This document shows positions 3,021 through 64,000 of a DNA stretch of 64,000 nucleotides, piece after piece (position 1 is the stretch's first letter; each line of letters opens with the position of its first letter). The DNA lies in IMG/VR virus record IMGVR_UViG_3300020034_000011. One strand, given 5' to 3'. The stretch is from an uncultured virus (IMG/VR IMGVR_UViG_3300020034_000011). Lineage: Duplodnaviria > Heunggongvirae > Uroviricota > Caudoviricetes. The position numbers and the translations under genes are program-made. Below the pieces are notes generated by a model, which did no database searches, was not told where the DNA came from, and saw only the letters and a list, made by a program, of their open reading frames with translations.

Positions 3021-3050
3021 CCTTTATTCGAATGCTAAAGGAGATGTGGA

Positions 3051-3467: not shown

Positions 3468-3475
3468 GAGGATGG

Positions 3476-3784: not shown

Positions 3785-3786
3785 TC

Positions 3787-5690: not shown

Positions 5691-5716
5691 TCAACAACTC
5701 TAACGGGAGGTTCAAA

Positions 5717-7261: not shown

Positions 7262-7279
7262 AAGAGAGGAGGCGGCATC

Positions 7280-9046: not shown

Positions 9047-9068
9047 TGAGAAGAAAGGAGGAGAGCTG

Positions 9069-10427: not shown

Positions 10428-10903
10428 TGAGGACTCCTACGGAGTACGAGATCGACCGACTGATGCACAGCTTGATTCCGGTGGTCAAGAAGCCGAAGAA
10501 GGCTGCTATCCCGCCTCCACCCAAGCCGATTGCCAGCACGACATCCACGGATGCTCGAGCTGAGCAGCGTAAGACCCTTGCCAAGTTGATTCAGAGGTTG
10601 GAGCAGAAGCTTGCGAAACTGAACGCGCTCATCAAAGAGCGGGAACAGGAAGCCGCTTCGGTCAACCACTCGGCCATGGCCAAGAAAGAGCGGAAAGCCA
10701 AAGAGAACACTACGGCTAAAGCCGCTGCTAAGCAGGCCGAGATCGATCGAAACAACAAGAAGATCATCGATCGAAATCGAGAGCCCAAGACCAAGCTAAA
10801 GGTCAAAGTCACCAAGCAACCAACGGTGGCTGAGCTCAAGGTTTTGGCGACGCGAGTCAAGGGTCAGATCGCAATCGCCAAGCAGAAGTTAGCTGCGCTC
10901 TAA
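10424..10903 (+). CDS. Lys-rich coiled-coil protein
   Basis: 159 aa between portal and capsid genes; LMH motif near the N-terminus. Confidence 0.6.
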   Translation: MMRTPTEYEIDRLMHSLIPVVKKPKKAAIPPPPKPIASTTSTDARAEQRKTLAKLIQRLEQKLAKLNALIKEREQEAASVNHSAMAKKERKAKENTTAKAAAKQAEIDRNNKKIIDRNREPKTKLKVKVTKQPTVAELKVLATRVKGQIAIAKQKLAAL

Positions 10904-10942
10904 GAGCGCCGAAGATCCAAACGGACGAAAGGAACAGTCAAA

Positions 10943-13042
10943 ATGGGAGCCACTCCCCGACTGAACTTCGGTGACTCTTCGCCGGAGAACAGCTTGATGC
11001 ATTCGGATGACGCTGTCGCGCCAGTGGTTGGCATGCGAGAGCCTGACTTCAGTGGTTGGGCGTCGAAGTACGGAATCAGGTGCACCGATGGGCGCACCAT
11101 CGAGCCGGGTACGTTCGAGCATCAGGATTCCGAGCGCTTGCCGCTGGTTTGGCATCACGGTCACTCCTCGGTCGACAACATCCTCGGACACGTCATCATC
11201 GAGCACCGTGATGAAGGCCCGTACTGCTTCGGGTACTTCAACGAGACGACGCAGGGCAAGAGCGCGAAGCTCATGGTGGAGCATGGAGACATCGACAAGC
11301 TCTCCATTTTCGCCAATGGGATCGTCGAGAAGATGAAGAAGGTTTCACACGCCTTCATGCGCGAGGTCTCGTTGGTCATCGCTGGCGCCAACTCAGGCGC
11401 AATCATCGACAACATCACTGTCGCGCATAGCGATGGGGAAGTCGACATCCACGCCGATGAGGCGATCATCTACACCGGCCTCACGCTGGAGCACGGCGTT
11501 GCTTCCGCGAAGGCGGCACCGGTCGCTCGGACCACCGACGAGCCCGTGGCCACTGACGCAACCATCGAAGAGGTCTTTGGGACCTTCTCCGATGATCAGA
11601 AGGAAGTCGTCCACTTGATGGTCGGTGCCGCGCTCGAGAGTGCCGCAACCCCCAGCGACGACAGCACCGACACCACGACCGATACCTCCGATCCGGAGAA
11701 GGTCATCACCCACGAGGATGAGGATTCGACCGAGATGACGAACGTGTTCGAGAAGAACAAGGGCAAGATTGGCGGAGACGAGCCCGAGACCATCACGCTG
11801 TCGCATGACGCGATGGGGGCGATCGGCGAGGCCGCCAAGAAGACCGGCTCCTACAAGGACGCCGTCGTGGAGTACGCGTTCAAGCACGGCATCGAGAACA
11901 TCGATGCGCTGTTCCCGGACGCGCGGAACATCACCGAGACCCCCGAGTGGGACAAGCGCCGCACCGAATGGGTCGGCGAGGTCCTGGGCAAGGTTCGCAA
12001 GAGCCCGTTCTCGCGGATCAAGTCGCTGGTGGCCAACATCACCCACCCCGAGGCCCGCGCCCGCGGTTACATCAAGGGCACGCTGAAGAAGGACGAGTTC
12101 TTCGCTCTGACCAGCCGTGTCACCACGCCTGCGACGGTCTACAAGAAGCAGCGTCTGGACCGTGACGACATCGTCGACATCACGGACTTCGACGTCGTCA
12201 TCTGGCTGAAGGGCGAGATGCGACTGATGCTCGAGGAGGAGATCGCTCGCGCGATCCTCATCGGTGACGGCCGCCTTTCGGACGACGACGACAAGGTCAA
12301 GGACCCGTCCGGCTCCACCGAGGGCGCGGGCATCCGTTCGATCCTGAACGACCACGACCTCTACGCTGCGACGTTCTACGTGGACGTCGACGGTGACCTC
12401 AAGAAGACGGATGTCGTGGATCAGGTCCTGTCCTCGATGCAGTACTTCAAGGGCTCGGGCATCCCGACGTTCTACTCGACGCAGGGCACCATCACGCAGA
12501 TGCTGCTCGCTCGCGACGAGATGGGCCGTCGCTTCTACCGCACCGCCACGGAGCTGGCCTCCGAGCTGGGCGTCGACAAGTGCGTCGCCGTCGAGCCGAT
12601 GGAAGACGAGCCCGACCTGGTCGGCATCATCGTCAACCTGCAGGACTACACCCTCGGCGCCGATCGCGGTGGCGAGACCTCGATGTTCGATGACTTCGAC
12701 ATCGACTACAACCAGTACAAGTACCTGATCGAGACCCGCGTCTCCGGCGCGCTCACCAAGATCCGCTCGGCGATCATCGTCAAGCAGGCTGGCAACGGCA
12801 TCACGCTCGTCGCCCCGACCGAGCCCACGTTCGATCCGGCAACGTCGGAGATCACGATCCACGACACGGTGGGCGTCACCTTCCGTCGCGGCGACAACAA
12901 CGCGGCTGTCACCAACGGCGGCTCGCCGTACACGGTCGCCGAGGGCGTCGACCTGAAGATCTACGCTGTCGCCAACGGCGGCTACATCCTCAAGAACAAC
13001 GTCGAGGATGAGTGGACGTACCGCGGCACCGAGGGCAGCTAG
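10943..13042 (+). CDS. prohead protease-scaffold-major capsid fusion with C-terminal Ig-like domain
   Basis: DFSGWASKY/PLVWHH/EVSLV HK97-like protease region, then capsid region ending YLIETRVSGAL. Confidence 0.88.
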   Translation: MGATPRLNFGDSSPENSLMHSDDAVAPVVGMREPDFSGWASKYGIRCTDGRTIEPGTFEHQDSERLPLVWHHGHSSVDNILGHVIIEHRDEGPYCFGYFNETTQGKSAKLMVEHGDIDKLSIFANGIVEKMKKVSHAFMREVSLVIAGANSGAIIDNITVAHSDGEVDIHADEAIIYTGLTLEHGVASAKAAPVARTTDEPVATDATIEEVFGTFSDDQKEVVHLMVGAALESAATPSDDSTDTTTDTSDPEKVITHEDEDSTEMTNVFEKNKGKIGGDEPETITLSHDAMGAIGEAAKKTGSYKDAVVEYAFKHGIENIDALFPDARNITETPEWDKRRTEWVGEVLGKVRKSPFSRIKSLVANITHPEARARGYIKGTLKKDEFFALTSRVTTPATVYKKQRLDRDDIVDITDFDVVIWLKGEMRLMLEEEIARAILIGDGRLSDDDDKVKDPSGSTEGAGIRSILNDHDLYAATFYVDVDGDLKKTDVVDQVLSSMQYFKGSGIPTFYSTQGTITQMLLARDEMGRRFYRTATELASELGVDKCVAVEPMEDEPDLVGIIVNLQDYTLGADRGGETSMFDDFDIDYNQYKYLIETRVSGALTKIRSAIIVKQAGNGITLVAPTEPTFDPATSEITIHDTVGVTFRRGDNNAAVTNGGSPYTVAEGVDLKIYAVANGGYILKNNVEDEWTYRGTEGS

Positions 13043-13062
13043 TCGTTACTAGCTGATACCTG

Positions 13063-13389
13063 ATGGCGAAGTTTCACGGCAAGGTCGGATACGCGAACCA
13101 GCCCACTGAAACTGCACCTGGCGTGCACGAGGAACCCATCACGGAACGAACCTATTCTGGCGACGTCGTTCAAAATAGGAGACAGCTTCGTGACGGTGAC
13201 CGGGTAATTCCGGGCACCACCCTCAGTAATTCGATCAGCATCGTGGCCGATGCATACGCTCGTGACCATTTCTTCGCCATCCGTTATGTGGAGTGGGCGG
13301 GGGTTCTCTGGACAGTGCCTGATGTGGAAGTCCAGACCCCCCGCCTTCTCCTTCGTTTGGGGGAGGTTTACAATGGCCCAACGGCTTGA
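13063..13389 (+). CDS. head-to-tail stopper/closure protein
   Basis: 108 aa beta-rich protein, synteny after capsid. Confidence 0.65.
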   Translation: MAKFHGKVGYANQPTETAPGVHEEPITERTYSGDVVQNRRQLRDGDRVIPGTTLSNSISIVADAYARDHFFAIRYVEWAGVLWTVPDVEVQTPRLLLRLGEVYNGPTA

Positions 13390-13672
13390 CCTCCAAGTCC
13401 TCCTTGAGGACATCACAGAGCACGTTTATTACCAGCAACCGACCGATACTCAGATGCAGTACCCCTGCATCCTATACGAACGAGATGCCTCCTGGTCGGA
13501 GCACGCTGACAATCGGCCCTACGCACGCATGAAGCGGTATCAGGTGACGGTCGTTGACCGTAACCCCGACAGCGAACTGCCAGACATTGTGGAAGAACTT
13601 AGGTTCTGCTCATTCGATCGCTCATTCAGAGCGGACGGATTGAACCACTTTGTCTTCAATCTCTTTTTCTGA
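13373..13672 (+). CDS. tail terminator protein
   Basis: VYYQQP...YPCILY motif; immediately precedes major tail; start ATG 13373. Confidence 0.7.
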   Translation: MAQRLDLQVLLEDITEHVYYQQPTDTQMQYPCILYERDASWSEHADNRPYARMKRYQVTVVDRNPDSELPDIVEELRFCSFDRSFRADGLNHFVFNLFF

Positions 13673-13688
13673 AACGGAGTAAAACAAC

Positions 13689-14576
13689 ATGACGAAGCTT
13701 GCATGGGACCTCGTCGGCGAGCGTCAGTACGAGACCGGCGTCGACCACGGCGTCCTTTACCTGCCGGACAACACCGGCGCTTACGTCGAGGGTCACGCTT
13801 GGAATGGTCTGACGACCGTTACCGAGTCGCCTTCCGGCGCTGAGTCCAACCCGCAGTACGCAGACAACATCAAGTACCTCAACCTGGTGTCGGCCGAGGA
13901 GTTCGGCGCCACGATCGAGGCGCTCACGTACCCGAAGGCGTTCGAGGAGTGCGACGGGTCGGTCCAGCCTCAGCCGGGGGTTACCCTCGGGCAGCAGGGC
14001 CGCCGGATCTTTGGCCTGTCCTACCGGTCCAAGGTCGGCAACGATCTGGAGGGTGCGGATTTCGGGTACAAGATCCACCTGGTCTACGGCGCTCTCTCGG
14101 CTCCGTCGGAGAAGGCGTACAACACGATCAACGACTCCCCTGAGGCGATCACGTTCTCGTGGGAGATCAGCACGACGCCGGTGGCGGTCGAGGGCTTCAA
14201 GCCGACGGCCCTGCTGACGATCGACTCCACCCAGGTGGATGCCGACGATCTGGCGGCCCTCGAGGAGATCCTCTACGGCACCGAGGTGGACGATCCCCGT
14301 CTGCCGCTGCCTGACGAGGTCATCACGCTGGTTGGTACGGGCACCACCAACGTCGACCTGACGGTTCCGGCCAATCAGCCGACGTTTGTCGCGGCCACGG
14401 GTGTCCTCACCCTCCCGGTCGTCTCGGGTGTCCAGTGGAAGGTCAACGGGGCCAACCGCGCCCCCGGCGCCCAGGCTGCCATCGCGGCAGGCGCTCAGAT
14501 CGAGGTCACGGCCGTTGCCACGGCCGATCACAACCTCCAGGGCGATGACGAGTGGACGTACCGCCGCGACGCATAG
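13689..14576 (+). CDS. major tail protein with C-terminal Ig-like domain
   Basis: WD..GER.YETGVDHGVLY...AWNGLT...YADNIKY tail tube signature. Confidence 0.88.
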   Translation: MTKLAWDLVGERQYETGVDHGVLYLPDNTGAYVEGHAWNGLTTVTESPSGAESNPQYADNIKYLNLVSAEEFGATIEALTYPKAFEECDGSVQPQPGVTLGQQGRRIFGLSYRSKVGNDLEGADFGYKIHLVYGALSAPSEKAYNTINDSPEAITFSWEISTTPVAVEGFKPTALLTIDSTQVDADDLAALEEILYGTEVDDPRLPLPDEVITLVGTGTTNVDLTVPANQPTFVAATGVLTLPVVSGVQWKVNGANRAPGAQAAIAAGAQIEVTAVATADHNLQGDDEWTYRRDA

Positions 14577-14584
14577 TCGCGTAA

Positions 14585-14705
14585 TTCCTCGCGGTCGCGA
14601 CTCCCAGGCAAGAGTCGGGGAGAACAGCCGAGCAGGCAGGATCCTCTACTCTCCGGGATCGCTCGTAAGTCTGTGGGAGGCACCGTAACCCGGCCACCGC
14701 GGGGG
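14585..14705 (+). ncRNA. structured intergenic RNA after the major tail gene
   Basis: nested stems TTCCTCGCGGT/ACCGCGGGGG, CTCCCAGGC/GTCTGTGGGAG, CGAGC/GCTCG, GATCC/GGATC. Confidence 0.45.
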
Positions 14706-14728
14706 CTGAAGATGAAAGGAACCAGAGA

Positions 14729-15271
14729 GTGCTCACAATTACAGTTGGAACCACCGACGTCTATGACGATGAGACCGGCACGTTCGGTATCACTGGCGGG
14801 TTCGAGCTCCAGCTGGAGCACTCTCTGGTCGCCCTTTCAAAATGGGAGGCGATTTACGAAAAGCCGTTCCTCGGTACGGCGAAGAAGACCGGGGAAGAGA
14901 TCCTTTCTTACGTTCGCTGCATGGTTGTCAGCGAAAATCCCCCGGAGGACTTTCTCACTCAGCTTTCAGAAGCGAATCTTGCGGACATCAATGCGCATAT
15001 CGACGCGAAGATGACCGCCACCTGGTTTTCTGATCAGCCGGGCAAGTCTGGAACCGGTGAAATCATCACCTCTGAGCTCATCTATTTTTGGATGTCGGTG
15101 TTCAAGATCAACTTCGATTGTGAAACGTGGCATCTCAATCGCCTGTTCACACTTATCCGCATTGCACACCTCAAGCAGCAGAAGCCGAAGAAGATGAGTA
15201 GAGCTGAGATCGTTCGACGCAATCGTGATCTCAACGAGCAGCGCAAGGCAGCCCTTGGGACAACGGGATAG
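14729..15271 (+). CDS. tail assembly chaperone
   Basis: LEHSLVALSKWE motif; synteny after major tail. Confidence 0.65.
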   Translation: MLTITVGTTDVYDDETGTFGITGGFELQLEHSLVALSKWEAIYEKPFLGTAKKTGEEILSYVRCMVVSENPPEDFLTQLSEANLADINAHIDAKMTATWFSDQPGKSGTGEIITSELIYFWMSVFKINFDCETWHLNRLFTLIRIAHLKQQKPKKMSRAEIVRRNRDLNEQRKAALGTTG

Positions 15272-15283
15272 AGAGGAGGTACT

Positions 15284-16066
15284 GTGCCCGCCATTCAGTG
15301 GGACAAGATCGGCGATCGGCGATTCGAAGCTGGTGTAGATCGCGGAGTACTCTACCTCCCCGATAAGGCGGTAGCTTGGAGCGGCCTTACGGGAATCGAG
15401 GAGAGCCCCAGTATCGATTCCAAGTCGTTCTATCAGGACGGCATCAAGTACTTGGACGTCAAGGTTCTGAGCGAGTACAGCGCCACGTTGCGTGCGCTCA
15501 CCTATCCGGATGAGTTCGATCAGGTCATGGGTATTGCCGCCGATGGGCAGGGTTTATTCATCCACGATCAGCGTGTTCGCCCGTTCAGTCTGTGCTACCG
15601 CACCAGGATTGGTAATGACGTCGCCGGAATCGATTTCGGGTATCGTCTACACATTCTTTACGACCTAATGGCAGTACCCAACAGTGCGGCTTTCGGAACG
15701 GTCGAAAGCAACGTGGATCCGGTGGAGTTCTCTTGGGCGCTCAGCAGTACCCCTCAAGCGCTTCCCGGATACCGTCCTACCGCGCATCTGTCGATCAAGT
15801 CGACCGACATCGACGCTGGCTACCTCGAGTACGTCGAGTCAATCTTGTACGGCAATGAGCTTGCCGATGCGTATTTGCCGACGATGGCTGAGATGTTCGA
15901 TCTCATCGCCAACCAGGTGACCATCGTTGACAACGGCGATGGCACGTGGACCGCGTCTGGTTCCGATCGAGTGATTCAAGACTTTGGCGATACGTTCATC
16001 ATTGGTGGCGTGTCTATTGCCGGACCGATCGACGGTCGGTACGAGTTGACCATCCCCGTGCACTAA
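15284..16066 (+). CDS. second major-tail-like (tail tube paralog) protein
   Basis: clear paralog of 13689-14576 (WDKIGDRRFEAGVDRGVLY, TYPDEF, YRLHILY). Confidence 0.8.
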   Translation: MPAIQWDKIGDRRFEAGVDRGVLYLPDKAVAWSGLTGIEESPSIDSKSFYQDGIKYLDVKVLSEYSATLRALTYPDEFDQVMGIAADGQGLFIHDQRVRPFSLCYRTRIGNDVAGIDFGYRLHILYDLMAVPNSAAFGTVESNVDPVEFSWALSSTPQALPGYRPTAHLSIKSTDIDAGYLEYVESILYGNELADAYLPTMAEMFDLIANQVTIVDNGDGTWTASGSDRVIQDFGDTFIIGGVSIAGPIDGRYELTIPVH

Positions 16067-16075
16067 GGAGGCCTA

Positions 16076-16513
16076 ATGGCTACTGTAACCGGCATGACGG
16101 CCGAAAAGATCAACGAGCTCATTGATGGGCGCGTACCAGCATCTTCGGTGGAAGTTGAGGCAACGGTCGAGGATCTGGATACCGGTGATGGGGCTTTTGG
16201 GTCTCTTGCGCTGGGTCGGGCATATCGACTGATCAAGGTGGAGGTCGACAAGCCCTGCCGTCTTCGGCTTTACGCAAGCACGGAGCAGCGAACCGCCGAC
16301 GGAGATCGCAATCGCGACGAAGATCCGCAAGGTGACCACGGCGTTATCTTGGAAGTCATCATGACTGACGAGATCCTGTCGATGAATCTGCTTCCTGCGC
16401 CTCACGGGTACACGGACGTTGTGTCCGGAACCACGCCTTTCTCCATTGTTAATGACGGGGATGACGGCGACATTACCATCACCTTCCTTGAACAAGTACT
16501 GGAGCCCGCATGA
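16076..16513 (+). CDS. minor tail protein
   Basis: tail-module position, RBS AAGGAGG. Confidence 0.55.
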   Translation: MATVTGMTAEKINELIDGRVPASSVEVEATVEDLDTGDGAFGSLALGRAYRLIKVEVDKPCRLRLYASTEQRTADGDRNRDEDPQGDHGVILEVIMTDEILSMNLLPAPHGYTDVVSGTTPFSIVNDGDDGDITITFLEQVLEPA

Positions 16514-17574
16514 TCGCATATTTGTCTACCAGTGTCAGCGATGCTGATGCTCCTGCAGCAGGCATCTTGACCCAGGATGCGATCCGCGACAACTTGCTGG
16601 ATCATGCCTCCGGAGCGTGGACCTTGGTCGAGGAGTTCAACTCTTCGGGCAGCACGATCCACTGGGTTGTTGTCAAGAACGACGGATCCTTGTCAGATGT
16701 TGGCGTGGATTTCTACGTCGTCATCGGCCGTCTCGCCGCCACCGGTCAGATTGGCATCTTTTTGGGTGAGAACTACAATGCTGGGTCGAACACCCTCGAT
16801 ACTTTCGCCCCTCGTGCTGGGGCATACTACGAGAACTCCATCCTCGCGGATCACTCATATTCCACTGGTGGCGGTTCGACAGCATCGTTTGTGCTGGGAA
16901 CGAGTTTTCCCAGTGGTGCCGTGGGACAACCAATTTGTCCAGTGCCGACCGCAGCGCCCACCATGCGTTACATCTCGATGGTCGAGAAGGACTACGCCAT
17001 TTTTGCGATCAATGGCACGGTGATCTATGTCGGTGCGCTCATTGACGACATCGTTCCCGCGGCAGGACTCGACGCGGCAGTTCCGCTCGGGTGCTTCAAT
17101 TTGTTCGATACGGGCTACCCCGGTTTCGGAAGCCTGACCCGGCATCCGATTGCTGCAGCCGATGCGCCTATGGCGGTTACCTCGCCATTTGTCTTGTTGC
17201 CAATCTGGAATGACCGAAAGACCTTTGCTCAAGCATGGGCTTTGTCTACCGGAGTCTGGCTGCATCCTGATCGGTTCCAAGACAATCGTGTGGCTGCATC
17301 TGAGTTGTATGCGCTCATGGTTGCTGGAGTCACGGGCGGTAACGCGAACAATGGCGCCGAGAAGACCGGTCTTATTCGAGGCCGATTCAAGAATCTCCGC
17401 GTTGCTACGTTCCCGGCGGCTGTCGTACAGTACGACCTCATTGTTGTCGATGGACGGAAGGCGATCGTCCTTGGCGACAAGAATCAGCTGGATTCGGGCA
17501 TTTTCGTGACGCCCAATGGCTACTACACGGACGTCAAATGGGGCTTTGTCTGTGATACCGGGGTGGTGGCCTAA
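16510..17574 (+). CDS. minor tail protein
   Basis: 354 aa beta-rich ORF translationally coupled to neighbours. Confidence 0.55.
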   Translation: MIAYLSTSVSDADAPAAGILTQDAIRDNLLDHASGAWTLVEEFNSSGSTIHWVVVKNDGSLSDVGVDFYVVIGRLAATGQIGIFLGENYNAGSNTLDTFAPRAGAYYENSILADHSYSTGGGSTASFVLGTSFPSGAVGQPICPVPTAAPTMRYISMVEKDYAIFAINGTVIYVGALIDDIVPAAGLDAAVPLGCFNLFDTGYPGFGSLTRHPIAAADAPMAVTSPFVLLPIWNDRKTFAQAWALSTGVWLHPDRFQDNRVAASELYALMVAGVTGGNANNGAEKTGLIRGRFKNLRVATFPAAVVQYDLIVVDGRKAIVLGDKNQLDSGIFVTPNGYYTDVKWGFVCDTGVVA

Positions 17575-25385: not shown

Positions 25386-25450
25386 CAAGCCGGGCCTCAG
25401 GGGGTTTACGCCTCTTGAGACCCGGCTCCCTAACCAACCAAGGAGACTTC

Positions 25451-26302
25451 GTGCTGACGAACGTCGAGGTACGCAGTGCATGGTCGTCGGCGCCTGATGT
25501 TCCTCTGTCGGTTGGGGTGGGCGAAGACGAAGACCCACTTCAGATCCGAGGCATTGACGGACTCGGTCCGGTCAAGGCTACGATCAACACCACGCAGAAA
25601 GCTCAGCGCGGAGCGTTCAAGACCGGTAGCAGCACCCCTGCACGCAACGTCGTGCTGACGATCGGCTTCAATCCTGATTACGTTGAGCACACGGTGTCCA
25701 GCCTGCGTGAGAAGCTTTACGGGTACTTCATGCCCGAGCAGCCGGTGAACCTTCGCATTTTCCGCGACGACAAGCCCGCGGTTGAGATCGATGGTTTCTC
25801 AGAGGGCGTTGACCCAACCATTTTCTCGAAGGATCCAGAGGTGCAGATCTCGGTCATCTGTCCCGATCCAGACTTTGTTGCCGTCGCCGCATCAATCGTG
25901 GAGGGCACGGCAAACCACGAGCCGGTCTCTGTCGACTTCACCGCTCTGAGCAATATTGCAACCAGTGCGCTGCTTGAGATCACTGCCTTGGAAGGCGATG
26001 AGACGACCTACGACGGCACGATTACCTTTGAGAAGAAGACGCTGGCCTCAGGCGCGGAGATCTTCACGGTCACCGGAACCGTAGGCGAGGACATCGTCAC
26101 GCGAATCGACTCCAGGCAAGGCGACAAGATCGCCCAAGTTGACTACGGCGTTGAGACGACCAACATCCTCAACTCGATGACCGATGACTCGGTGTGGCCC
26201 CGCATCACGCCGGGCACCAACAAGATCAAGGTCATCCTCGAGGCTGCCGCGGCCGACAAGCACTGGAAGCTCACATATTTCGATCGCTTCGGGGGCTTGT
26301 GA
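25451..26302 (+). CDS. distal tail (Dit-like) protein
   Basis: follows tape measure; GIDGLGP...CPDPDF; GTG start after AAGGAG. Confidence 0.75.
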   Translation: MLTNVEVRSAWSSAPDVPLSVGVGEDEDPLQIRGIDGLGPVKATINTTQKAQRGAFKTGSSTPARNVVLTIGFNPDYVEHTVSSLREKLYGYFMPEQPVNLRIFRDDKPAVEIDGFSEGVDPTIFSKDPEVQISVICPDPDFVAVAASIVEGTANHEPVSVDFTALSNIATSALLEITALEGDETTYDGTITFEKKTLASGAEIFTVTGTVGEDIVTRIDSRQGDKIAQVDYGVETTNILNSMTDDSVWPRITPGTNKIKVILEAAAADKHWKLTYFDRFGGL

Positions 26303-29015: not shown

Positions 29016-29023
29016 GTAGGGTT

Positions 29024-29055
29024 TCGCGAGCGAATCATCGCTTATAGTGAGACCC
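29024..29055 (+). promoter_or_regulatory. phage promoter-like motif plus TGAGACCC leader
   Basis: TCGCG-N7-CA-N7-TAGTGAGACCC. Confidence 0.75.
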
Positions 29056-29070
29056 TAACAAGGAGAACAC

Positions 29071-29403
29071 ATGTTCGCCAAGCCTCCCATCGAAACCAAG
29101 CTCGAAGAGGAGATCACTTCTCAACTCAGCAAGCTGAGTGAGACACAGGACGCCGAAGAATACGGCGCCGCCGTCGATCGCATTTCCAAGCTGCACAAGC
29201 TGAAAACCGAAGAAGCCAACACCAGCCTCGCCCGCATCACCGCGGAGCAGAAGCTGTTGCTGGATTCCCGGATCAAGCTGCCCAGCGCGGATACGCTGCT
29301 CGCCGTCGGCGCCAACCTATTCGGCATCCTGTGGCTCACCCGCTATGAGCGAGAGAAAGTGATCTCCTCCAAGGCGCTTGGCTTCGTCATGAAGCCCCGC
29401 TGA
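29071..29403 (+). CDS. cassette protein with C-terminal hydrophobic segment
   Basis: 110 aa, AAGGAG RBS, followed by terminator 29428-29466. Confidence 0.7.
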   Translation: MFAKPPIETKLEEEITSQLSKLSETQDAEEYGAAVDRISKLHKLKTEEANTSLARITAEQKLLLDSRIKLPSADTLLAVGANLFGILWLTRYEREKVISSKALGFVMKPR

Positions 29404-29526
29404 ACCCGCCACTCCAGGCGAAGTCTAAAAGGAGGAATCGTGCTAAAAACACGGTTTCTCTTTTTTCTCTTTCGAAAATTCCCGGGGGAGAATCTCGACG
29501 GAAGGTCTTAGATATTGGTTCGCGAA

Positions 29527-29558
29527 ACGCGCGAAAAACATCGCTTATAGTGAGACCC
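29527..29558 (+). promoter_or_regulatory. phage promoter-like motif plus TGAGACCC leader
   Basis: ACGCG-N7-CA-N7-TAGTGAGACCC. Confidence 0.75.
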
Positions 29559-29574
29559 CTATATAAAGGACCCC

Positions 29575-29811
29575 ATGTTCGATTACCTGTTTTTGGACAG
29601 TGCCATTCAATCCCTTCAGAAGCTCCCCAAAGAGTTCGTCTATGCCGCTTTCGCGTGCGTCACGATCATCGAGGTTCACAAGCGCCATGCGCAAGTGCAA
29701 CAATCGACGATCGCGGCCAACGCCAAGGTGCGCATTGCCGAGCTCGAAGTGGAGAAGCTGACGCTTGAACTGGACCTGCACAACGCCAGAGCCGAAAACC
29801 CCCTGCATTAG
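29575..29811 (+). CDS. cassette hypothetical protein
   Basis: 78 aa; terminator 29821-29850. Confidence 0.65.
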   Translation: MFDYLFLDSAIQSLQKLPKEFVYAAFACVTIIEVHKRHAQVQQSTIAANAKVRIAELEVEKLTLELDLHNARAENPLH

Positions 29812-29859
29812 TTCTCAAGGAGAGAATTCACCAACACGGATTCTCTTTTTACCTGCAAT

Positions 29860-29891
29860 TCGCGTGTTTTTCATCCCTTGTAATGAGACCC
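29860..29891 (+). promoter_or_regulatory. phage promoter-like motif plus TGAGACCC leader
   Basis: TCGCG-N7-CA-N7-TAATGAGACCC. Confidence 0.75.
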
Positions 29892-29910
29892 ATCTTACAA
29901 GGAGAATACC

Positions 29911-30062: not shown

Positions 30063-30094
30063 TCGCGTAGAAAACATAGTCTCTAATGAGACCA
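30063..30094 (+). promoter_or_regulatory. phage promoter-like motif plus TGAGACCA leader
   Basis: TCGCG-N7-CA-N7-TAATGAGACC. Confidence 0.75.
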
Positions 30095-30115
30095 CATCTA
30101 CTCAAAGGAAACACT

Positions 30116-30313
30116 ATGTTCACCAAGATCACTTCTGCCCCGAAGCGCATCGCCACGCACATCGTCAGCCATCGCGCTGCGTATGGTTACACCGCCGGAA
30201 TCATCACCGGCGGCTACATCATCCGCAAGCTCGACAGCGACACGTACGGCATGGCCATCGCCTTCATCGAGGAGAAGGGCTTGACCGACGAGTTCTTCAC
30301 CCCTGTCGATTAG
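30116..30313 (+). CDS. cassette hypothetical protein
   Basis: ATG 30116 after AAAGGAA; terminator 30320-30352; resembles N-terminus of 51806-52075. Confidence 0.65.
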   Translation: MFTKITSAPKRIATHIVSHRAAYGYTAGIITGGYIIRKLDSDTYGMAIAFIEEKGLTDEFFTPVD

Positions 30314-30384
30314 TCCCACGAGAAAGTTCGCTAACGCGGATTTTCTCTTTTTGCTGTGCCTGAGACCCTATCTAGGAGCAAGAC

Positions 30385-35466: not shown

Positions 35467-35796
35467 GTGAAGCACGACCGTTTCGAGGACATCCTGGATG
35501 CGCGCCTGAAACGCATCCGGGATGTCCTGGTCGTCAAGACCGAAGAATACGCCACCGACGACCAATTGCACAACATCAGACAAGCAGCGGCTCTACAAGG
35601 CGTCGGCATGCCTCAAGCCGTTGCGGGAATGATGGCGAAACACACCGTCTCGATTTTTACCATGATCGCAGACGGCAAGCCCCACGACGTAACCAAGTGG
35701 GATGAGAAGATCACCGACCACATCGTTTGGCTGATTCTTCTAGAAGCAGCACTCATCGACAACGCCAATCCAGATCAAGGATCCCTCCCTTGCTGA
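35467..35796 (+). CDS. all-alpha NTP pyrophosphohydrolase-like (MazG/DUF1599-type) protein
   Basis: K..EY..DD.LHN...KH...WDEKITD..VWLILL pattern. Confidence 0.55.
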   Translation: MKHDRFEDILDARLKRIRDVLVVKTEEYATDDQLHNIRQAAALQGVGMPQAVAGMMAKHTVSIFTMIADGKPHDVTKWDEKITDHIVWLILLEAALIDNANPDQGSLPC

Positions 35797-36461
35797 AGAA
35801 GAGCATCATCTACACCAATCCGTTCACCCAAGCACAGGTGACCGAGGAGCACTACTTCCATCTTTCCAAGGCCGATGTGGTCGAGATGAACATGGAAGAG
35901 CACAAGGCCACCTATCGGAACAAGGAAGGCGAAGACCTCGAGGGTCTCGAGGCCAAGCTCGCGATGATTTCCGAGTCCGAGGACGCCAAGCAGATCTTGG
36001 CCGAGCTCAAGGACGTCATCCGCCGTGCTTACGGCGTGAAAGACGGCGACCGGTTCATCAAGTCGAAGGACAACTGGGACGCCTTTTCCTCGACGGAGGC
36101 ATATTCTCAGCTGCTCTTCGATCTGTACACGAATGCCACCGAGGCGGGCGAGTTCATGAGCGGGCTGCTCCCGAACAACCTCAGAGCGGAGCTTGCTGCC
36201 GCTGGCGCAACGGGTCCCAGTGGGTCTACGCCAACGCCAAGCGTGGAGGTTCCCGCAGCTCCAACCGAGCCGGAGCTCATCCCGGTCCCGGAAGCTGCGC
36301 CTGAGGAGGCCCCTCCGGCGCCCAGCATGACCGCCGAGCGCAAGGCGGTTCTCGACCTAGCATCGGCAACAAACCCGATCAAGCTCGATCAGGTTGATGT
36401 GGTCGGTGGTGACGCGCAGTACATCCAGGACGGCGTTCGTACGGGCCGCTTCCAGCTGTAG
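35790..36461 (+). CDS. conserved phage protein with Pro-rich tail
   Basis: probable TTG start 35790, LKKSIIYT...EEHYFHLSK, AYG.K...RFIKS...TEAYSQL. Confidence 0.65.
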   Translation: MLKKSIIYTNPFTQAQVTEEHYFHLSKADVVEMNMEEHKATYRNKEGEDLEGLEAKLAMISESEDAKQILAELKDVIRRAYGVKDGDRFIKSKDNWDAFSSTEAYSQLLFDLYTNATEAGEFMSGLLPNNLRAELAAAGATGPSGSTPTPSVEVPAAPTEPELIPVPEAAPEEAPPAPSMTAERKAVLDLASATNPIKLDQVDVVGGDAQYIQDGVRTGRFQL

Positions 36462-36472
36462 CACAAGCTCTC

Positions 36473-36628
36473 CTAGAGAGATGGGGTCTCAACCTGAGAG
36501 GTACCAGCGGCTAAAGCGCTAGGTATCAAACGACAGCAAATGGCACGAGGTCGTATCTAACCCAGCGAATGGGCTACGGTGTGGCGGCAAACTCGTCCGA
36601 ACGTGCCTCTCAGGCCCATATTCTCTAG
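36473..36628 (+). ncRNA. structured ncRNA copy 1 with GUCUCAA bulge
   Basis: stems CTAGAGA..ATGGG/CCCAT..TCTCTAG and CCTGAGAGGTAC/GTGCCTCTCAGG; core shared with copy 2. Confidence 0.7.
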
Positions 36629-36637
36629 AACAAAGTA

Positions 36638-36703
36638 TGTGATGTCGAGTATCCGGTAAGGGTTCGGTGCGTAAGGGACTAATCATCGCCCGGCTACATC
36701 ACA
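36638..36703 (+). ncRNA. structured RNA element between the two copies
   Basis: TGTGATGT/ACATCACA closing stem with inner CCGG/CCGG and CGGTG/CATCG. Confidence 0.4.
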
Positions 36704-36716
36704 CAAAGTCTCTCCC

Positions 36717-36839
36717 AGAGAGATGGGGTCTCAACGTAAAAGGGGTACCTGCGCGACTGCGCTCGGTATCAAACGACAGCAACCACAGGGCTCCTCAGCC
36801 GGATGTCCTGTATATTTGCGCCCTTTTTATGCCCGTTTT
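36717..36839 (+). ncRNA. structured ncRNA copy 2 with GUCUCAA bulge
   Basis: same fold as copy 1 with different stem sequences (CGTAAAAGGGGTAC/GCGCCCTTTTTATG). Confidence 0.7.
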
Positions 36840-37083
36840 ACGCGAACAAAGCAGGCTGGTTCGACCTATGCTTATGGCCTAAACATCGTGGGTTGATCAC
36901 CACGGTGCCATGAGCGGGTTTCTGACCAAGTCGAACAATAGACCACGGTACGGTATCTCAATGGCGTCTGAGCACGTCAACGAAAGATCGTGTTCGATGG
37001 AATTGGGGTAAAGGCGCACACCGGTGTATCGTGCATCGCTGCGCCTCGCTCAAATCCCACGTGCCAGCCTGCTTTGTTCGCGT
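36840..37083 (+). ncRNA. ~245-nt structured RNA closed by a perfect 20-bp inverted repeat
   Basis: ACGCGAACAAAGCAGGCTGG (36840-36859) / CCAGCCTGCTTTGTTCGCGT (37064-37083), several inner hairpins, no credible ORF. Confidence 0.6.
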
Positions 37084-37109
37084 AGAATTCACCGATTGTA
37101 ATGAGACCC
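37078..37109 (+). promoter_or_regulatory. phage promoter-like motif plus TGAGACCC leader
   Basis: TCGCG-N7-CA-N7-TAATGAGACCC. Confidence 0.75.
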
Positions 37110-37135
37110 TATACTTTCAAACTAAGGAGACCGTC

Positions 37136-37402
37136 ATGGACGCTTTTACGCCCCGCAACGTCGCCCAGTTCGTAGCCAAGACCATCATCCAAACGCAAAC
37201 CGCTGCGCTTGTTGGAACTACCATCACCGATCACACCCGCTTCGATGAAGACGACACCATCGTCCACATCGCCAGTGGCGTGACCGGCTGGTACGTTGCC
37301 GACCTGCTCAAGCCGTACAGCGACCAGATGGTGGACAAGGCTGCCGACTGGATCAACGCCCGCAAGGCCAAGAAGTCCGCCGAGACCCCCGAGTCCGAGT
37401 AA
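37136..37402 (+). CDS. cassette hypothetical protein
   Basis: ATG 37136 after AAGGAG; terminator 37410-37443. Confidence 0.7.
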   Translation: MDAFTPRNVAQFVAKTIIQTQTAALVGTTITDHTRFDEDDTIVHIASGVTGWYVADLLKPYSDQMVDKAADWINARKAKKSAETPESE

Positions 37403-37706: not shown

Positions 37707-38007
37707 TCTCTTAGAGGTGTTGGACGAAAGAAGCAGGACAGAGGGGTGCGCATTCTGATTCTAGGTATCCTAACTAATCACGCACGCGCTTTTGCTTTAG
37801 CTCATCCTTTTCCAAGTAGGCCTGCTCTACTATTTCAGGAAGTCCGACTCCGGCCTTAGATCCCAGAAGATGGGCTAAGGCCGGATAGGCGTCTTTATAT
37901 CCATCAACCTCGGAGGGTCTCATGATGACGCTACACCCCACTTACTGAGTGGTCAAGTGAAAACGTCTTACGCAAAAGTAACCCATATCAGGCGTCGAAA
38001 GGTTTTG

Positions 38008-38208
38008 ATGAAGTACAGCGCTTGGATGTACGACCCAACGGTCGGCTGGGGTGGCGTCCACCGCGTCACCCTGGATGAGGCGGTCCGAATGTGTCGAGAC
38101 TTCAAGCGTGACTGGGACAACGTCGCCGTAGCGGTGACACTCCACGGCGTTGATCCCGAGCCGTATTTCGCGTTAGCGCTTTCTTTGGATCACTTGTCGC
38201 TCGCGTGA
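38008..38208 (+). CDS. hypothetical protein
   Basis: ATG 38008 after GAAAGG. Confidence 0.5.
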   Translation: MKYSAWMYDPTVGWGGVHRVTLDEAVRMCRDFKRDWDNVAVAVTLHGVDPEPYFALALSLDHLSLA

Positions 38209-38232
38209 GAAACACGGCATATAATGAGACCC
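38201..38232 (+). promoter_or_regulatory. phage promoter-like motif plus TGAGACCC leader
   Basis: TCGCG-N7-CA-N7-TAATGAGACCC. Confidence 0.75.
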
Positions 38233-38254
38233 CTATCACCAAGGAGACACCGCA

Positions 38255-38434
38255 ATGAATCAGTTCCTCGAGAACCTCAAGCGTGAGGCCGAGGCCAACC
38301 CCACAGTGACCCTCGCCGTCGCAGCTGGTCTGTTCACCGCAACAGCCAAGCTGATCGACGCCGCAGGTCGCCACAAGGGAAGCACCGCCTACGCCAAGGA
38401 TGTCGCACGCCGAGTCAAGCGCGACTCCCGGTAA
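38255..38434 (+). CDS. 59-aa cassette protein (below ORF-track cutoff)
   Basis: MNQFLENLKREAEANPTVTLAVAAGLF...; AAGGAG RBS; terminator 38446-38474. Confidence 0.7.
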   Translation: MNQFLENLKREAEANPTVTLAVAAGLFTATAKLIDAAGRHKGSTAYAKDVARRVKRDSR

Positions 38435-38481
38435 CACGTTTCAAGAAGAAGAGCCGTACTCGGCTTTTCTTTTTGCCAATC

Positions 38482-38600
38482 TCGCGCAAAAAACATGCTT
38501 TATAGTGAGAGATAGATAATTGCTGCAGATCCCGAAAGGGCAATCCGTCTACTGGTCGCAGCTTCGCAAAGACTATTACCAGTTTCTATCTTTTTCTTTT
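38482..38600 (+). ncRNA. promoter motif plus ~90-nt structured RNA
   Basis: TCGCG-N7-CA-N7-TAGT; GAGATAGA/TCTATCTT closing stem, GCTGC/GCAGC, CCC-GAAA-GGG, possible ACTGGT/ACCAGT pseudoknot, then T tract. Confidence 0.6.
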
Positions 38601-50116: not shown

Positions 50117-50745
50117 TGAAGCAGCTCATTTTCGAGATCATCCTTGGGGTGGTCTTGGGGCTGGCGATACTCTTGTTGATTTTTGAAGTCATCGAGATTC
50201 TCGTCATGCTCTTGAGCAATGTTTCTAATCTTGACGGGACACGCCCGTCGCCGTAATTCCCGGAGACCAAGCAGCGGCTTCCAGTCGCAGAGCGGTCGTA
50301 GGGTAAATCGGCAACCCTTCTGAGTTGGCCGCAGGAGGTCCAAACCCCGGGTAGTGTCCGGGTACCAACGGGGGTCGGCTCCCGTTGGTCAGTCATATTT
50401 AGAGGAGGACTCCGTGTTCAAGAAGCTGCTCATCCCCGAAGATGGTGCAACGGTCAAGTGGTATCAGTACCCGTTTGCGCTTGGTTATGGCTTATGGCAA
50501 TTGCTCGTGACGAAGCGGAGCGTGGACTGATGGAAAACATGGAACGCGTGCAAGAGCTCATCCAGCGATCGGCCGATGCGCGTAAAGCGATGCAAGAAGC
50601 CAGAGCAGTCGAAGAGGTAGCTCGCGTCGCTCGTGTGTCTGCGGAGAGCGCTTGCGAAAAGGCTAGCGGCGAACTCGGCAAAGAGATTCGTGGGCAGGTA
50701 GATGCTTTGGTGCCGATCAAGGAAGGCGACAGGGTTTTCTAATCC

Positions 50746-50777
50746 TCGCGGGAATTTCATTGATTGTAATGAGACCC
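50746..50777 (+). promoter_or_regulatory. phage promoter-like motif plus TGAGACCC leader
   Basis: TCGCG-N7-CA-N7-TAATGAGACCC. Confidence 0.75.
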
Positions 50778-50793
50778 CTATCTAAGGAAACCC

Positions 50794-50961
50794 ATGCTTA
50801 CCACACTTTTCCGCCGTAGCGCCCACACCGTCCCCACGGTTGATTTGGAGCAGCTCGACCTGGACCTCTTGCGTATCAACTACGCAGGCAACCCTGTCGC
50901 GCAGCTTCACCTCGACCGCATGCAGACGAGTCTGAACGCTTCGCGCAACAAGGCCAAGTAG
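50794..50961 (+). CDS. 55-aa cassette protein (below ORF-track cutoff)
   Basis: MLTTLFRRSAHTVPTVDLEQLDLDLL...; AAGGAA RBS; terminator 50984-51020. Confidence 0.65.
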   Translation: MLTTLFRRSAHTVPTVDLEQLDLDLLRINYAGNPVAQLHLDRMQTSLNASRNKAK

Positions 50962-51282: not shown

Positions 51283-51315
51283 GTATTGAGACCCTATCTA
51301 CTCAAGGAGACTGCC

Positions 51316-59975: not shown

Positions 59976-60004
59976 ATGTTGAGACCCCCACAAAAAGGAC
60001 GATT

Positions 60005-60244
60005 ATGCCCAAGGTAAAAGCAGCACCCGTCAAGGCGGTATTCAAGTCAGCTGATGACGAACTCGCGTATCACCTCGAGAAGGCCGAGGATCATCTGATC
60101 AAGGCGGTGATGTTGTTTATTCATGACAAGAAGCCCGAGCGCAATGCCGATTACTTCAAGCGGCTGGGACGTGCTCAGGAGATCGTCACGGGTCTGTTTC
60201 GCGAAGAACTAGTACGAATGCGTGGAACGAAACGGCCGAGATGA
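60005..60244 (+). CDS. hypothetical protein
   Basis: ATG 60005 after TGAGACCC (59980) and AAAGGA. Confidence 0.6.
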   Translation: MPKVKAAPVKAVFKSADDELAYHLEKAEDHLIKAVMLFIHDKKPERNADYFKRLGRAQEIVTGLFREELVRMRGTKRPR

Positions 60245-62714: not shown

Positions 62715-63225
62715 TCCCAGTTCGTATCACTGGATCAACTATGACGAAGAGAAACTCGCCTATCGCTACAAGACACTGCAGGCAGCGATCGAGGGCGTAG
62801 AGCAACACCGGTTCGCAGCGATCGCTATCGAAGAGTGCGTCGTGCAGGACAACGAAACAACCACACTTGGGATGTACATCAATCAGTGCATCCAGTTCAA
62901 GATGGCTTCTGAGATCGTCTTGTTCTACTCACCTAACGCGTTCGGCACAGTGGACGCAATCTCTTTTCGTCACAAGCGTCTGAGGATCAGCGACCTCAAG
63001 ACCGGAGTGACGCGCACATCAGAGCATCAGCTTGAGGTCTATGCTGCGCTCTTCTGCCTCGAATACGAGGTGGACCCGTTCTCCCTACGGGGCATTGAGC
63101 TCCGTATCTATCAGGATAACGCGGTACGCGAGTACCCTGGTGATCCATATAAAATCGTGGGGATCATGGACAAGATCGTGAGATTCAATGCAATTCTCAA
63201 TCAGCTTCGAGAGGAGGTGTCGTGA
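62665..63225 (+). CDS. PD-(D/E)XK (Cas4-like) exonuclease, probable CTG start
   Basis: HAFLSPSSYHWINY N-terminus; FGTVDAI...ISDLKTG...QL.VYA. Confidence 0.75.
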   Translation: MRFRQHSHLEGQHAFLSPSSYHWINYDEEKLAYRYKTLQAAIEGVEQHRFAAIAIEECVVQDNETTTLGMYINQCIQFKMASEIVLFYSPNAFGTVDAISFRHKRLRISDLKTGVTRTSEHQLEVYAALFCLEYEVDPFSLRGIELRIYQDNAVREYPGDPYKIVGIMDKIVRFNAILNQLREEVS

Positions 63226-64000
63226 TGGAGCTAACTGAAGGAGAGTACCTGGCCCATTACGGCATTCTTCGCAAGTCGGGGCGTTATCCTTGGGGATCTG
63301 GAGAGAACCCCCATCAGCGCAGCAAGACGTTTCTCGACATCATCGATCAGCACAGGAAAGACGGGCTGAGCGAAGCTAAGATCGCTGAGCTGTACCAGCC
63401 TGTGGATTCAGAGGGAAGGAAGATCCCTCCGTTCTTCACGACGTCAGATCTTCGTGCTCTGAAGTCGAGAGCTGTGAACCTTCAGAAGCAAGCGCAGATC
63501 CGGGAAGCCACGTCTCTGCGTGAAGACAAGGGCATGAGCCCATCAGCTATTGGTCGACAGATGGGTCTCAACGAGTCGACCGTTCGCTCACTCCTCGAGC
63601 CGGGCCGTCAAGAGAAGCTCGATATCCTGCAGGAAACGGCTAACATGCTCAAGCGTCAGGTTGAGGAGAAGCCGTTCCTTGACGTTGGTGGGCAAACCGA
63701 ACGTGATCTTCCCATCTTCTCCGATATCCCAAACATCGGGATTTCGAAGGACAAGTTCAACACCGCCCTCTCCATGCTCAAGGAAGAGGGATATTCGGTC
63801 CACACGGTTCGGGTTCAGCAGGTCGGTACAGGAGAGTACACCAAGTACCGAGTTCTGGTGAAGCCTGGGGTTACACAGAAGGACGTGTTCCTCAATCGTG
63901 ATCAGATCCGAGTCATCTCTGAGAAATCAGATGATGGTGGTCGTACCTACAACGATCGAGCCCTCAAGCCGCCTCTGAGTATCGACGCCAAGCGCATTGA
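63225..64000 (+). CDS. large HTH-containing protein, truncated by the window end (candidate phage RNA polymerase)
   Basis: appears open to the window end; MELTEGEYLAHYGILRKSGRYPWGSG; HTH GMSPSAIGRQMGLNESTVRSLL; missing from the ORF track because no stop codon. Confidence 0.7.
   Translation, partial: MELTEGEYLAHYGILRKSGRYPWGSGENPHQRSKTFLDIIDQHRKDGLSEAKIAELYQPVDSEGRKIPPFFTTSDLRALKSRAVNLQKQAQIREATSLREDKGMSPSAIGRQMGLNESTVRSLLEPGRQEKLDILQETANMLKRQVEEKPFLDVGGQTERDLPIFSDIPNIGISKDKFNTALSMLKEEGYSVHTVRVQQVGTGEYTKYRVLVKPGVTQKDVFLNRDQIRVISEKSDDGGRTYNDRALKPPLSIDAKRI

Follow-up and report, generated by a model that had tools for sequence, protein, structure and literature searches.

Tandem copies of a predicted structured RNA in an actinobacterial siphovirus point to an uncatalogued phage RNA family with complementarity to a shared 5′ leader

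We describe two predicted RNAs, D1 and D3, in a stretch of 64,000 nucleotides (nt) of uncultured virus DNA (IMG/VR record IMGVR_UViG_3300020034_000011; the whole stretch is referred to here as the window), which are two tandem, diverged copies of one conserved and, as judged from the sequence, structured RNA. The family to which D3 and, on a weaker match, D1 belong is an uncatalogued one of many actinobacterial phages; the family itself, its predicted fold and its placement behind a conserved gene are solid. In most relatives, and in both window copies, part of the RNA is the reverse complement of the common start of transcripts from a repeated phage promoter; at the level of sequence this antisense relation is real and follows the leader variants of individual phages. 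The most likely mechanism, to which we give about an even chance, is that of an antisense RNA that would pair with the shared 5′ leader and alter translation and/or stability.

Two tandem copies of one RNA

D1 and D3 lie in the spacer behind the gene at 35727-36461, which stops 12 nt ahead of D1, and have two exact 18-mers in common, GAGAGATGGGGTCTCAAC and GGTATCAAACGACAGCAA, each occurring exactly twice in the window (Table 1). At up to three mismatches no extra copy of either was present in the window, the chance expectations being 0.08 and 0.03. The repeats comprise a 34-nt block of 88% identity and a 24-nt block of 96% identity, and the stems between them have diverged yet still pair, as CCTGAGAGG/CCTCTCAGG in D1 vs GTAAAAGGG/CCCTTTTTAT in D3, with a further changed stem reading AGCG/CGCT in D1 vs GCGC/GCGC in D3. 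The predicted fold of the whole 674-nt spacer (36463-37136) reaches -276 kcal/mol, against -215.8 ± 6.7 for shuffled sequence (z = -9.05; 0 of 20 shuffles as good). D3 folded alone gives z = -2.94, and isolated pieces of 74 to 83 nt do not fold significantly better than shuffles (z -0.76 to -0.82). GUCUCAA (36486-36492) forms a one-sided 7-nt bulge between helices P0 and P1 of D1 when the entire spacer is folded to minimum energy, and in D3 folded alone it is a 6-nt bulge, with a competing 5′ hairpin, CUCUCC/GAGAGA, forming as well. An earlier note on this DNA had reported two RNAs with a common fold, identical blocks and stems that differ and still pair, all of which is borne out by the duplicated 18-mers and the covarying stems. 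Its 7-nt one-sided bulge in each copy holds for D1 and is one nucleotide shorter in D3 folded alone.

Neither copy has a promoter of its own, there being no TATAAT-like box and no upstream box ahead of D1 or D3. We considered and rejected a minus-strand promoter, as the minus strand of D3 has GTCGCG-N13-TACGTT-GAGACCCC with no downstream gene and that of D1 lacks such boxes. The open reading frame (ORF) at 36667-36882 was likewise rejected as coding because the family shows insertions and deletions that are not multiples of three, together with compensatory stem changes.

An RNA family in actinobacterial phages

A covariance model, R1, was built from 28 relatives with the window left out. Its best match across the 64 kb is D3 (36732-36833; 23.2 bits, E 0.0012), a score equal to that of Arthrobacter phage Argan (23.2) and above that of Curtobacterium phage Yotsuba (20.3). 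The second-best local match is D1 (36488-36618), a weak one at 10.3 bits (E 0.041 within 901 nt, with filters off only), in which P1, P2, the core and GUGCC are placed as expected around a 42-nt insertion. Over 49 sources R1 gave 44 matches, at most one per locus, with none in Sporto, Cheesy, FP_oengus, Loretta or Tatanka. The signature T[TC]AAACGAC, which occurs twice in the window, is found once per RNA-bearing relative locus, directly 3′ of a Phage_TAC_17-like gene (Gravy, Pepy6, Poco6, SheRa, RosaAsantewaa, Cheesy, Argan and Yotsuba), and this order of gene and RNA on the coding strand is that of 8 annotated relatives. Besides the phages of Gordonia, Rhodococcus, Streptomyces, Arthrobacter and Curtobacterium in which the family occurs, a degenerate pattern picked out 36 further IMG/VR stretches with a member.

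The predicted core of the family consists of a closing helix P1 (GGG/CCC), a hairpin P2(+P3), an unpaired (C/U)UUAAACGACAGCC, a variable hairpin and AACAUGYGCCC. Read 5′ to 3′, the layout runs from ..AUGGGG (5′ strand of P1) through P2 (e.g. GAUCAGCA/UGCUGAUC), P3 with the apical region and UAUUCCGGA to YUUAAACGACAGCCG, the variable hairpin and AACAUGYGCCC (3′ strand of P1). In a MAFFT alignment of the 28 relatives every cell of P2 is paired (100%), and both partners have changed in 6 of its 8 pairs; for P3 the share of paired cells is 83.7%. Overall pairing is 82.4% of cells, vs 68.8% for shuffled sequence (0 of 500 as high) and 35-49% for slid partners, and it rises to 87.5% on a model-fitted alignment of 40 distinct sequences. 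RNAalifold independently recovers P1, P2 and the base of P3.

The same covariation could arise in single-stranded DNA, from which it cannot tell RNA, and the motif as DNA is the same in both orientations, so an element that works in double- or single-stranded DNA has to be weighed: an inverted copy of the initiation region serving as a binding site for a promoter factor, a roadblock, an origin or a priming structure. Between the structural-lysis and replication arms, moreover, no non-coding stretch is larger than the spacer that bears the RNA. Yet R1 matches the + (coding) strand in 8 of 8 annotated loci, and the element lies within transcription units, often 30-45 nt ahead of the next ribosome site with no promoter between. 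G-U pairs, which are common in the family helices, fit RNA, whereas the complementary strand would hold A-C mismatches. A DNA-level role thus strikes us as very improbable.

No catalogued family accounts for these RNAs. Rfam 15, with c4, 6S, ribozyme and riboswitch families among its models, gave no match at gathering threshold in the window, and at E up to 10 over 36300-37250 it returned mir-3200 only (21 bits vs a threshold of 79); on five relatives it found nothing but a transfer RNA (tRNA), and on the SheRa RNA two sub-threshold matches, psbNH (15.2 bits vs 45) and sR42 (13.4 vs 38). The earlier note had not recognised the family and had proposed such a scan, which now agrees with it for window and relatives alike. 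The likeness of the SheRa RNA (locus L004, 12551-12596) to psbNH, which shares GUCUGG..ACUGUAGGGGUC, has E 0.24 in a 241-nt search and is not significant, probably chance. ARAGORN detected no tRNA or transfer-messenger RNA genes in the window, and the AAACGAC region, inspected by eye for a tag frame, holds no tag-like peptide. We found no description of the family in the literature on ReqiPepy6, cluster DJ promoters, actinobacteriophage non-coding RNA, GAGACCCC, TATAATGAGA or Arthrobacter clusters AM and AU, and the portions of PMC5513430 and PMC13313380 available to us make no mention of it.

An ATATT(T/C)-type motif flanks the RNA upstream in 4 of 25 representatives and downstream in 7 of 25, where about 1.5 of 25 would be expected (examples are L003 9896-9905 and L002 9200-9215, and CCCAUAUUCUC closes D1 of the window), and it may mark a site of processing or termination.

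The leader and its promoter

The sequence TGAGACCC has 15 matches in the window against 3.0 ± 1.7 expected, and none of 100 shuffles reaches 15. On the + strand there are ten, all of them with a ribosome site and start codon 15-30 nt further downstream. Two of the five on the minus strand are the RNAs D1 and D3 themselves, one (63563-63570) lies inside a coding frame, and two (307-314 and 37915-37922) have no promoter or leader context. The leader at 30087/30088 carries a variant of the motif, TAATGAGACCACATCTACTCAAAGGA, with a TCTAAT hexamer.

The T of TGAGACCC is the final T of a TATAAT-like hexamer, within a conserved promoter of about 35 base pairs (bp). The hexamer is TATAGT, TGTAAT or TATAAT at the 7 full sites of the scan and TATAAT in relatives, and an upstream box, TTCGCG in the window and TCGCA in relatives, stands 13-14 nt from it. 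The block tTCGCAnGAAtTACACggCC-TATAAT-GAGACCCCTAY..GAAAGGA is repeated about 5-15 times in the Gordonia, Rhodococcus, Streptomyces, Arthrobacter and Curtobacterium relatives. The hexamer agrees with a -10 box of the sigma-70 type, but neither the window promoters nor those of the relatives fit the rest of a sigma-70 arrangement, with a -35 hexamer at 16-18 nt and a start about 7 nt past the -10 box. In promoter-driven non-coding RNAs, such as the Pepy6 tRNA unit, the Gravy RNA (L002, 9657 onward) and the 38507 RNA of the window, the terminal stems reach back to the G right after the hexamer. Because the 13-14 nt spacing misfits sigma-70 and these non-coding RNAs fold back onto the G, we infer that transcription starts at or very near this G and that transcripts begin GAGACCCC. 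With GAGACCCC as a transcript start inside the promoter, the pairing partner of the RNA would be the first 8-20 nt of the transcripts and not the whole of TGAGACCC. A non-canonical RNA polymerase encoded by the phage may be what reads this promoter. Four window leaders (25417, 30362, 51288 and 59981) have the motif without the upstream consensus of the promoter, which suggests an RNA-level role of the motif.

Alongside these leaders, a complete promoter (TCTCGCG..TATAGT) at window 38479-38600 (+) leads not to a ribosome site but to an RNA of about 88 nt, the 38507 RNA. Its first 10 nt (GAGAGAUAGA) pair with UCUAUCUUUU just ahead of a U-run, and it probably represents a small RNA in its own right, transcribed from this promoter. 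A second conserved non-coding RNA that starts at a promoter is present in Gravy (L002 9657-9790) and Pepy6 (L003 10456-10570), with the common blocks CCUUGA.UCGC.CCUUUAGG.GAGG and GGAAGGUA.ACAGC. The two ends of the Gravy copy pair into a terminal stem that is followed by AUAUUUC, and the Pepy6 tRNA unit is built likewise. In Loretta (L011, about 9582-9640) a promoter is followed by sequence ending GGUUCGAAUCC, which is like a tRNA T-arm and may belong to an unannotated tRNA-like gene.

Complementarity between RNA and leader

Most relatives have in their apical region the stretch (GUA)GGGGUCUC, which is antisense to the start of the transcript, GAGACCCCUAC. After the TATAAT-like box the leader reads 5′-GAGACCCCUAC..GAAAGGA, and the antisense stretch covers its first 8-12 nt, or about 20 in some phages. 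Over 39 loci the longest antisense match of the apical region to the phage's own leaders has a mean of 9.5 nt, vs 5.3 for the sense strand and 5.2 for shuffles; it is at least 8 nt long and starts between -2 and +4 of the leader in 32 of the 39, and is 7 nt long in two. Variant leaders are answered by variant RNAs: in locus L034 the leader ACCCCCUACAG has five C's and the RNA five G's, the match continuing through CUACAG; in L046 one particular leader of six, AGACCCCUUCAC, is matched by GUGAAGGGGUCU in the RNA; and in L033 and L038 the leader has CCUU and the RNA AAGG. Among 26 representatives, with kinship uncorrected, own-phage pairing sums to 238 against 205.5 ± 4.9 for permuted partners, and none of 20000 permutations is as high. 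That the antisense stretch follows the leader variants argues for selection on complementarity.

In Pepy6 and Poco6 the complementarity extends for about 20 nt and into the ribosome site, which it also reaches at the 51288 leader of the window. This leader is the best predicted duplex partner of the 5′ block of the RNA, at about -37.7 kcal/mol over some 23 bp that take in the ribosome site. Of the nine sites in the 64 kb that score best with this block six are leaders, and the 51288 leader alone exceeds shuffled queries. In the predicted folds (U)AGG(G) is usually in the apical loop and GGUCUC in the weak 3′ strand of a stem, with the end of the motif 0-4 nt from a helix.

Much of what the earlier note had said of the leaders is upheld. 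Its motif ahead of the ribosome sites of about 11 genes corresponds to the 10 exact + strand sites and the variant at 30087, which is real; the motif it took for a messenger RNA tag does precede these ribosome sites and is not free-standing, since it straddles the end of the hexamer and the transcript start. The claim that the 5′ block of the RNA is its reverse complement stands for both copies and is kept in relatives, the extended match that it mentioned at 51286 is seen in the long duplex at 51288, and the co-variation of RNA and leader across phages, which it had named as a check, is found in the permutation comparison.

The window copies are atypical members of the family. Their P2 is short (15 and 7 nt inside P2), they have no P3, and the antisense block, CUCUCCYAGAGAGAUGGGGUCUCAAC, sits in a 5′ extension outside the family core and not in the apical P2/P3 region. 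The extension pairs with the 3′ tail as helix P0, strong in D1 and weak in D3. The reverse complement of this block resembles the entire leader including the ribosome site, and the block is unchanged between D1 and D3 although the adjacent stems have diverged. A 204-nt contig of low depth from another soil sample holds a third, diverged 5′ half (corresponding to window 36463-36547) in a different sequence context; it keeps the antisense block and has five P1 positions changed, and points to more copies or relatives in nature.

Proposed model and its alternatives

The position of the RNA, on the gene strand and immediately behind a conserved gene, is shared by a large group of lytic siphoviruses of actinobacteria. 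We propose a model in which the RNA would be cut from a polycistronic message or remain part of it. It would then base-pair with the common leader, which adjoins or overlaps the ribosome site, and the pairing would change translation and/or stability across the whole promoter class, acting in trans after processing or in cis on read-through messages. Because the RNA would be made from the same promoters, feedback control is possible. With rather less assurance, and somewhat short of an even chance, we entertain the further reading that the same 5′ tag (GAGACCCCUAC...) on all transcripts from the phages' own promoters, which may be specific to a phage polymerase, together with a dedicated RNA loop that reads it, would form a guide-like master switch of the promoter class; under it the RNA would have been conserved in more than 40 phage lineages of at least 5 actinobacterial genera and, in this phage, relocated within the molecule and duplicated.

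Several observations weigh against pairing with the leader as the function of the RNA. The core is present with no antisense stretch in 5 of the 39 relatives (Cheesy, Yotsuba, Argan and loci L022 and L039), so that the antisense part would be dispensable for whatever role the core has, and at the position of the RNA Sporto, Loretta and Tatanka have a plain hairpin alone. The permutation control leaves shared ancestry in, and most of the match is uninformative as to co-variation because the leader GAGACCCCUA hardly varies. Nine of the 10 exact-motif leaders give duplexes of -21.7 to -29.9 kcal/mol, within the range of the best shuffled-query sites in the 64 kb (-27.6 to -36.9), and the motif is predicted to be no more often unpaired than the remainder of the apical region. 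The match in some members reaches -1 or -2, positions that would lie outside the transcript if transcription starts at the G. For the invariant core UUAAACGACAGCC no complementary site of at least 11 nt and no consistent one was found in 9 phage loci, and this most conserved part is left unexplained by the leader-pairing model.

One alternative is that the RNA is a structural or processing element whose likeness to the leader is secondary. As an intercistronic or 3′-end module that does not pair with leaders, it would act as a scaffold for a bound protein, govern processing or stability, or end transcription by the phage polymerase, and its G-rich loop would be read by a protein or merely descend from a flipped promoter-leader cassette. 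The core (P1, P2, UUAAACGACAGCC and AACAUGYGCCC) is better conserved than the antisense stretch, and persists in the five members that lack it; the 3′ strand of the RNA often abuts the TCGCA box of the next promoter, as would suit such a module no less than the hairpins of related phages and the ATATT-type flank, commoner than background. Within the window, the left arm of the downstream domain D4 is likewise an inverted copy of the upstream box that belongs to the 37103 promoter. A mere remnant, however, would not persist in the apical loop where the flanking protein is only 27-38% identical to that of the window, would not change together with phage-specific leader variants, and would not stay identical in both window copies beside diverged stems. 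We consider this explanation unlikely.

The antisense stretch is also, by its nature, the template strand of the initiation region, and in relatives as in the window (GGGGUCUC-AA-P1) a gap of 0-4 nt usually separates its 3′ end from a helix's 3′ strand. This admits a 6S-like decoy, the alternative that the earlier note had named, or a template, in which the loop would copy the template strand (+1 to +11) directly 5′ of a helix and the polymerase would be sequestered or would copy a short RNA from it. In its favour are the long promoter block with no standard -35 box (a TCGCR box 13-14 nt from TATAAT) and the promoter-driven non-coding RNAs that pair back to the G right after TATAAT. The group also encodes a large helix-turn-helix protein that the available text of bioRxiv 10.1101/842583 proposes as the phage supergroup's own YonO/RdRP-like RNA polymerase. 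That assignment is itself a proposal, and of the gene just the N-terminal 259 amino acids (aa) are inside the window, as its last ORF. Nothing in the RNA mimics the promoter upstream of +1, and past GGGGUCUC there is no likeness to the complement of TATAAT or of the ACAC box, while in several phages the complementarity runs downstream into the letters of the ribosome site, which a mimic of the start site would not need. No Rfam 6S or related model matches. A decoy seems to us distinctly improbable, and antisense pairing with the leader remains the reading we prefer.

Comparison with known systems and significance

The c4 antisense RNA of phages P1 and P7 is phage-encoded and folded, lies in the same transcription unit as its targets, and shuts off translation through exposed loops that pair with leader and ribosome-site sequences. 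The role proposed here would be analogous, a folded phage-encoded antisense RNA directed at leader and ribosome-site sequences; the new family differs in having no likeness to c4 in sequence or structure, no Rfam family matching at threshold, and in that c4 acts on one operon, whereas the complement here is a 5′ start shared by an entire promoter class, with 11 leaders in the window. 6S RNA and Ms1 are RNA mimics of promoter DNA. Like them, the new RNA carries template-strand sequence of the initiation region beside a helix; unlike them, it lacks a large central bubble, does not mimic the upstream promoter and matches nothing in Rfam, and the polymerase concerned is a proposed phage enzyme.

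Promoters of T7-type phage polymerases have a conserved initially transcribed sequence and form a continuous block through +1, with TATA immediately before the initiating G. The window promoter resembles them as a continuous conserved block through the presumed +1 with a TATA-like box before G. It differs in that no T7-family polymerase gene is present among the 39 window proteins scanned, and in that its start is inferred only from the terminal stems of neighbouring non-coding RNAs. The start-associated sequences of cluster K mycobacteriophages are short conserved sequences just upstream of the starts of some phage genes; we know of no partner RNA for them. They share with our leaders the placement ahead of a subset of genes, and differ in sequence and in the phages that carry them. 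In cluster DJ Gordonia phages Vardy and Conley, the available text of PMC9671010 and PMC10868162 describes a 43-50-bp TATAAT-containing motif, which is the same promoter-plus-leader motif containing TGAGACCC and is repeated in the central small-gene region. There, as far as this text goes, it is treated as a sigma-70-type -10 box and no complementary RNA is reported; here the motif is traced over five host genera and tied to a putative structured RNA.

To our knowledge, the phage antisense RNAs so far known act on single operons. If the model is true, one RNA reading the tag of a whole promoter class would be a compact means of timing or shutting off a gene programme, and would offer a handle for engineering the widely used SEA-PHAGES model phages. 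Whatever the mechanism, the analysis provides an uncatalogued, well-covarying RNA family with an invariant, predicted single-stranded core and a sharper description of a promoter that is perhaps read by a phage-encoded non-canonical RNA polymerase. The predictions are testable in Gordonia terrae, Streptomyces lividans and Arthrobacter.

Genomic context and further features

The window comes from a soil metagenome and has the look of a lytic actinobacterial siphovirus, with every gene on the + strand: terminase, tail genes including a tape measure of 2030 aa, a holin and then many small genes, besides the replication genes for an SSB and a 1271-aa primase/polymerase. The latter is 61-63% identical to its counterparts in Gordonia cluster DJ phages and in Rhodococcus phage ReqiPepy6. 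No DNA match to the window was present in the phage collection, and the nearest record, G001, equals window 1-16818. Neither exact 18-mer was found in IMG/VR, where protein-seeded scans were likewise empty, and the single match of a metagenome scan was a spurious, low-complexity amidase with no RNA. By tblastn the gene at 37136-37402, downstream of the RNAs, has no phage homologue, and blastn found no homologue of D2, D4 or the 38507 RNA in the relatives' loci compared.

Table 1. Positions in the window of the RNA copies, neighbouring genes, promoters and leaders
Feature	Position	Strand	Remark
Conserved gene, Pfam Phage_TAC_17 (E 8e-34)	35727..36461	+	RNA family always directly 3′ of its homologues
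D1, first RNA copy	36473..36628	+	Predicted outer helix P0 (36473-36485 with 36615-28) surrounds family core
Conserved 18-mer GAGAGATGGGGTCTCAAC in D1	36476..36493	+	Reverse complement resembles leader as far as ribosome site
Core signature (UC)AAACGACAGC in D1	36522..36539	+	Predicted single-stranded; span of 18-mer GGTATCAAACGACAGCAA
D2, hairpin separating D1 and D3 (UGUGAUGU/ACAUCACA)	36634..36707	+	Alone not significant (z -0.76)
D3, second RNA copy	36708..36840	+	Antisense block in 5′ extension; core 36732-36833
Conserved 18-mer GAGAGATGGGGTCTCAAC in D3	36718..36735	+	Exact match
Core signature in D3	36765..36782	+	Exact 18-mer GGTATCAAACGACAGCAA and model R1 match
D4, 252-nt multi-hairpin domain	36836..37087	+	Closed by 24-nt inverted repeat, arms 96% complementary; predicted fold -124.9 kcal/mol
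Leader motif, no promoter consensus	25417..25450	+	Ahead of tail gene 25451-26302
Promoter and leader	29021..29070	+	Gene 29071-29403
Promoter and leader	29520..29574	+	Gene 29575-29811
Promoter and leader GAGACCCAUCUUACAAGGAG	29857..29910	+	
Promoter with variant leader GAGACCACAUCUACUCAAAGGA	30063..30116	+	'30087 variant'
Leader motif, no upstream consensus of promoter	30362..30384	+	
Promoter TTCGCG-N14-TGTAAT, then leader GAGACCCUAUAC...AAGGAG	37075..37135	+	Gene 37136-37402
Promoter and leader	38198..38254	+	Gene 38255-38434
Promoter and leader	50743..50793	+	Gene 50794-50961
Leader motif, no upstream box	51288..51315	+	Top predicted duplex partner of 5′ block of RNA
Leader motif, no upstream box	59981..60004	+	Ahead of gene 60005-60244
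First 259 aa of large helix-turn-helix protein	63222..63998	+	Gene cut by window end; homologues in 250 phage records, same groups

The right arm of D4 overlaps the upstream box of the 37103 promoter, and a read-through RNA could fold D4 over this promoter region. The gene ahead of the RNAs has homologues in 175 phage records and is a paralogue within the tail-assembly-chaperone family. In the Faecalibacterium relative FP_oengus (L009) a tail-assembly-chaperone gene is at the usual site, before the tape measure, and the actinobacterial phages have an extra copy of this family mid-genome, adjoining the RNA. Upstream of the terminase, window 5657-7261 (+) encodes a 534-aa protein with a 2′-5′ RNA ligase-superfamily (2H) domain and DUF7211 repeats; an enzyme that modifies RNA ends may matter in a phage rich in small RNAs.

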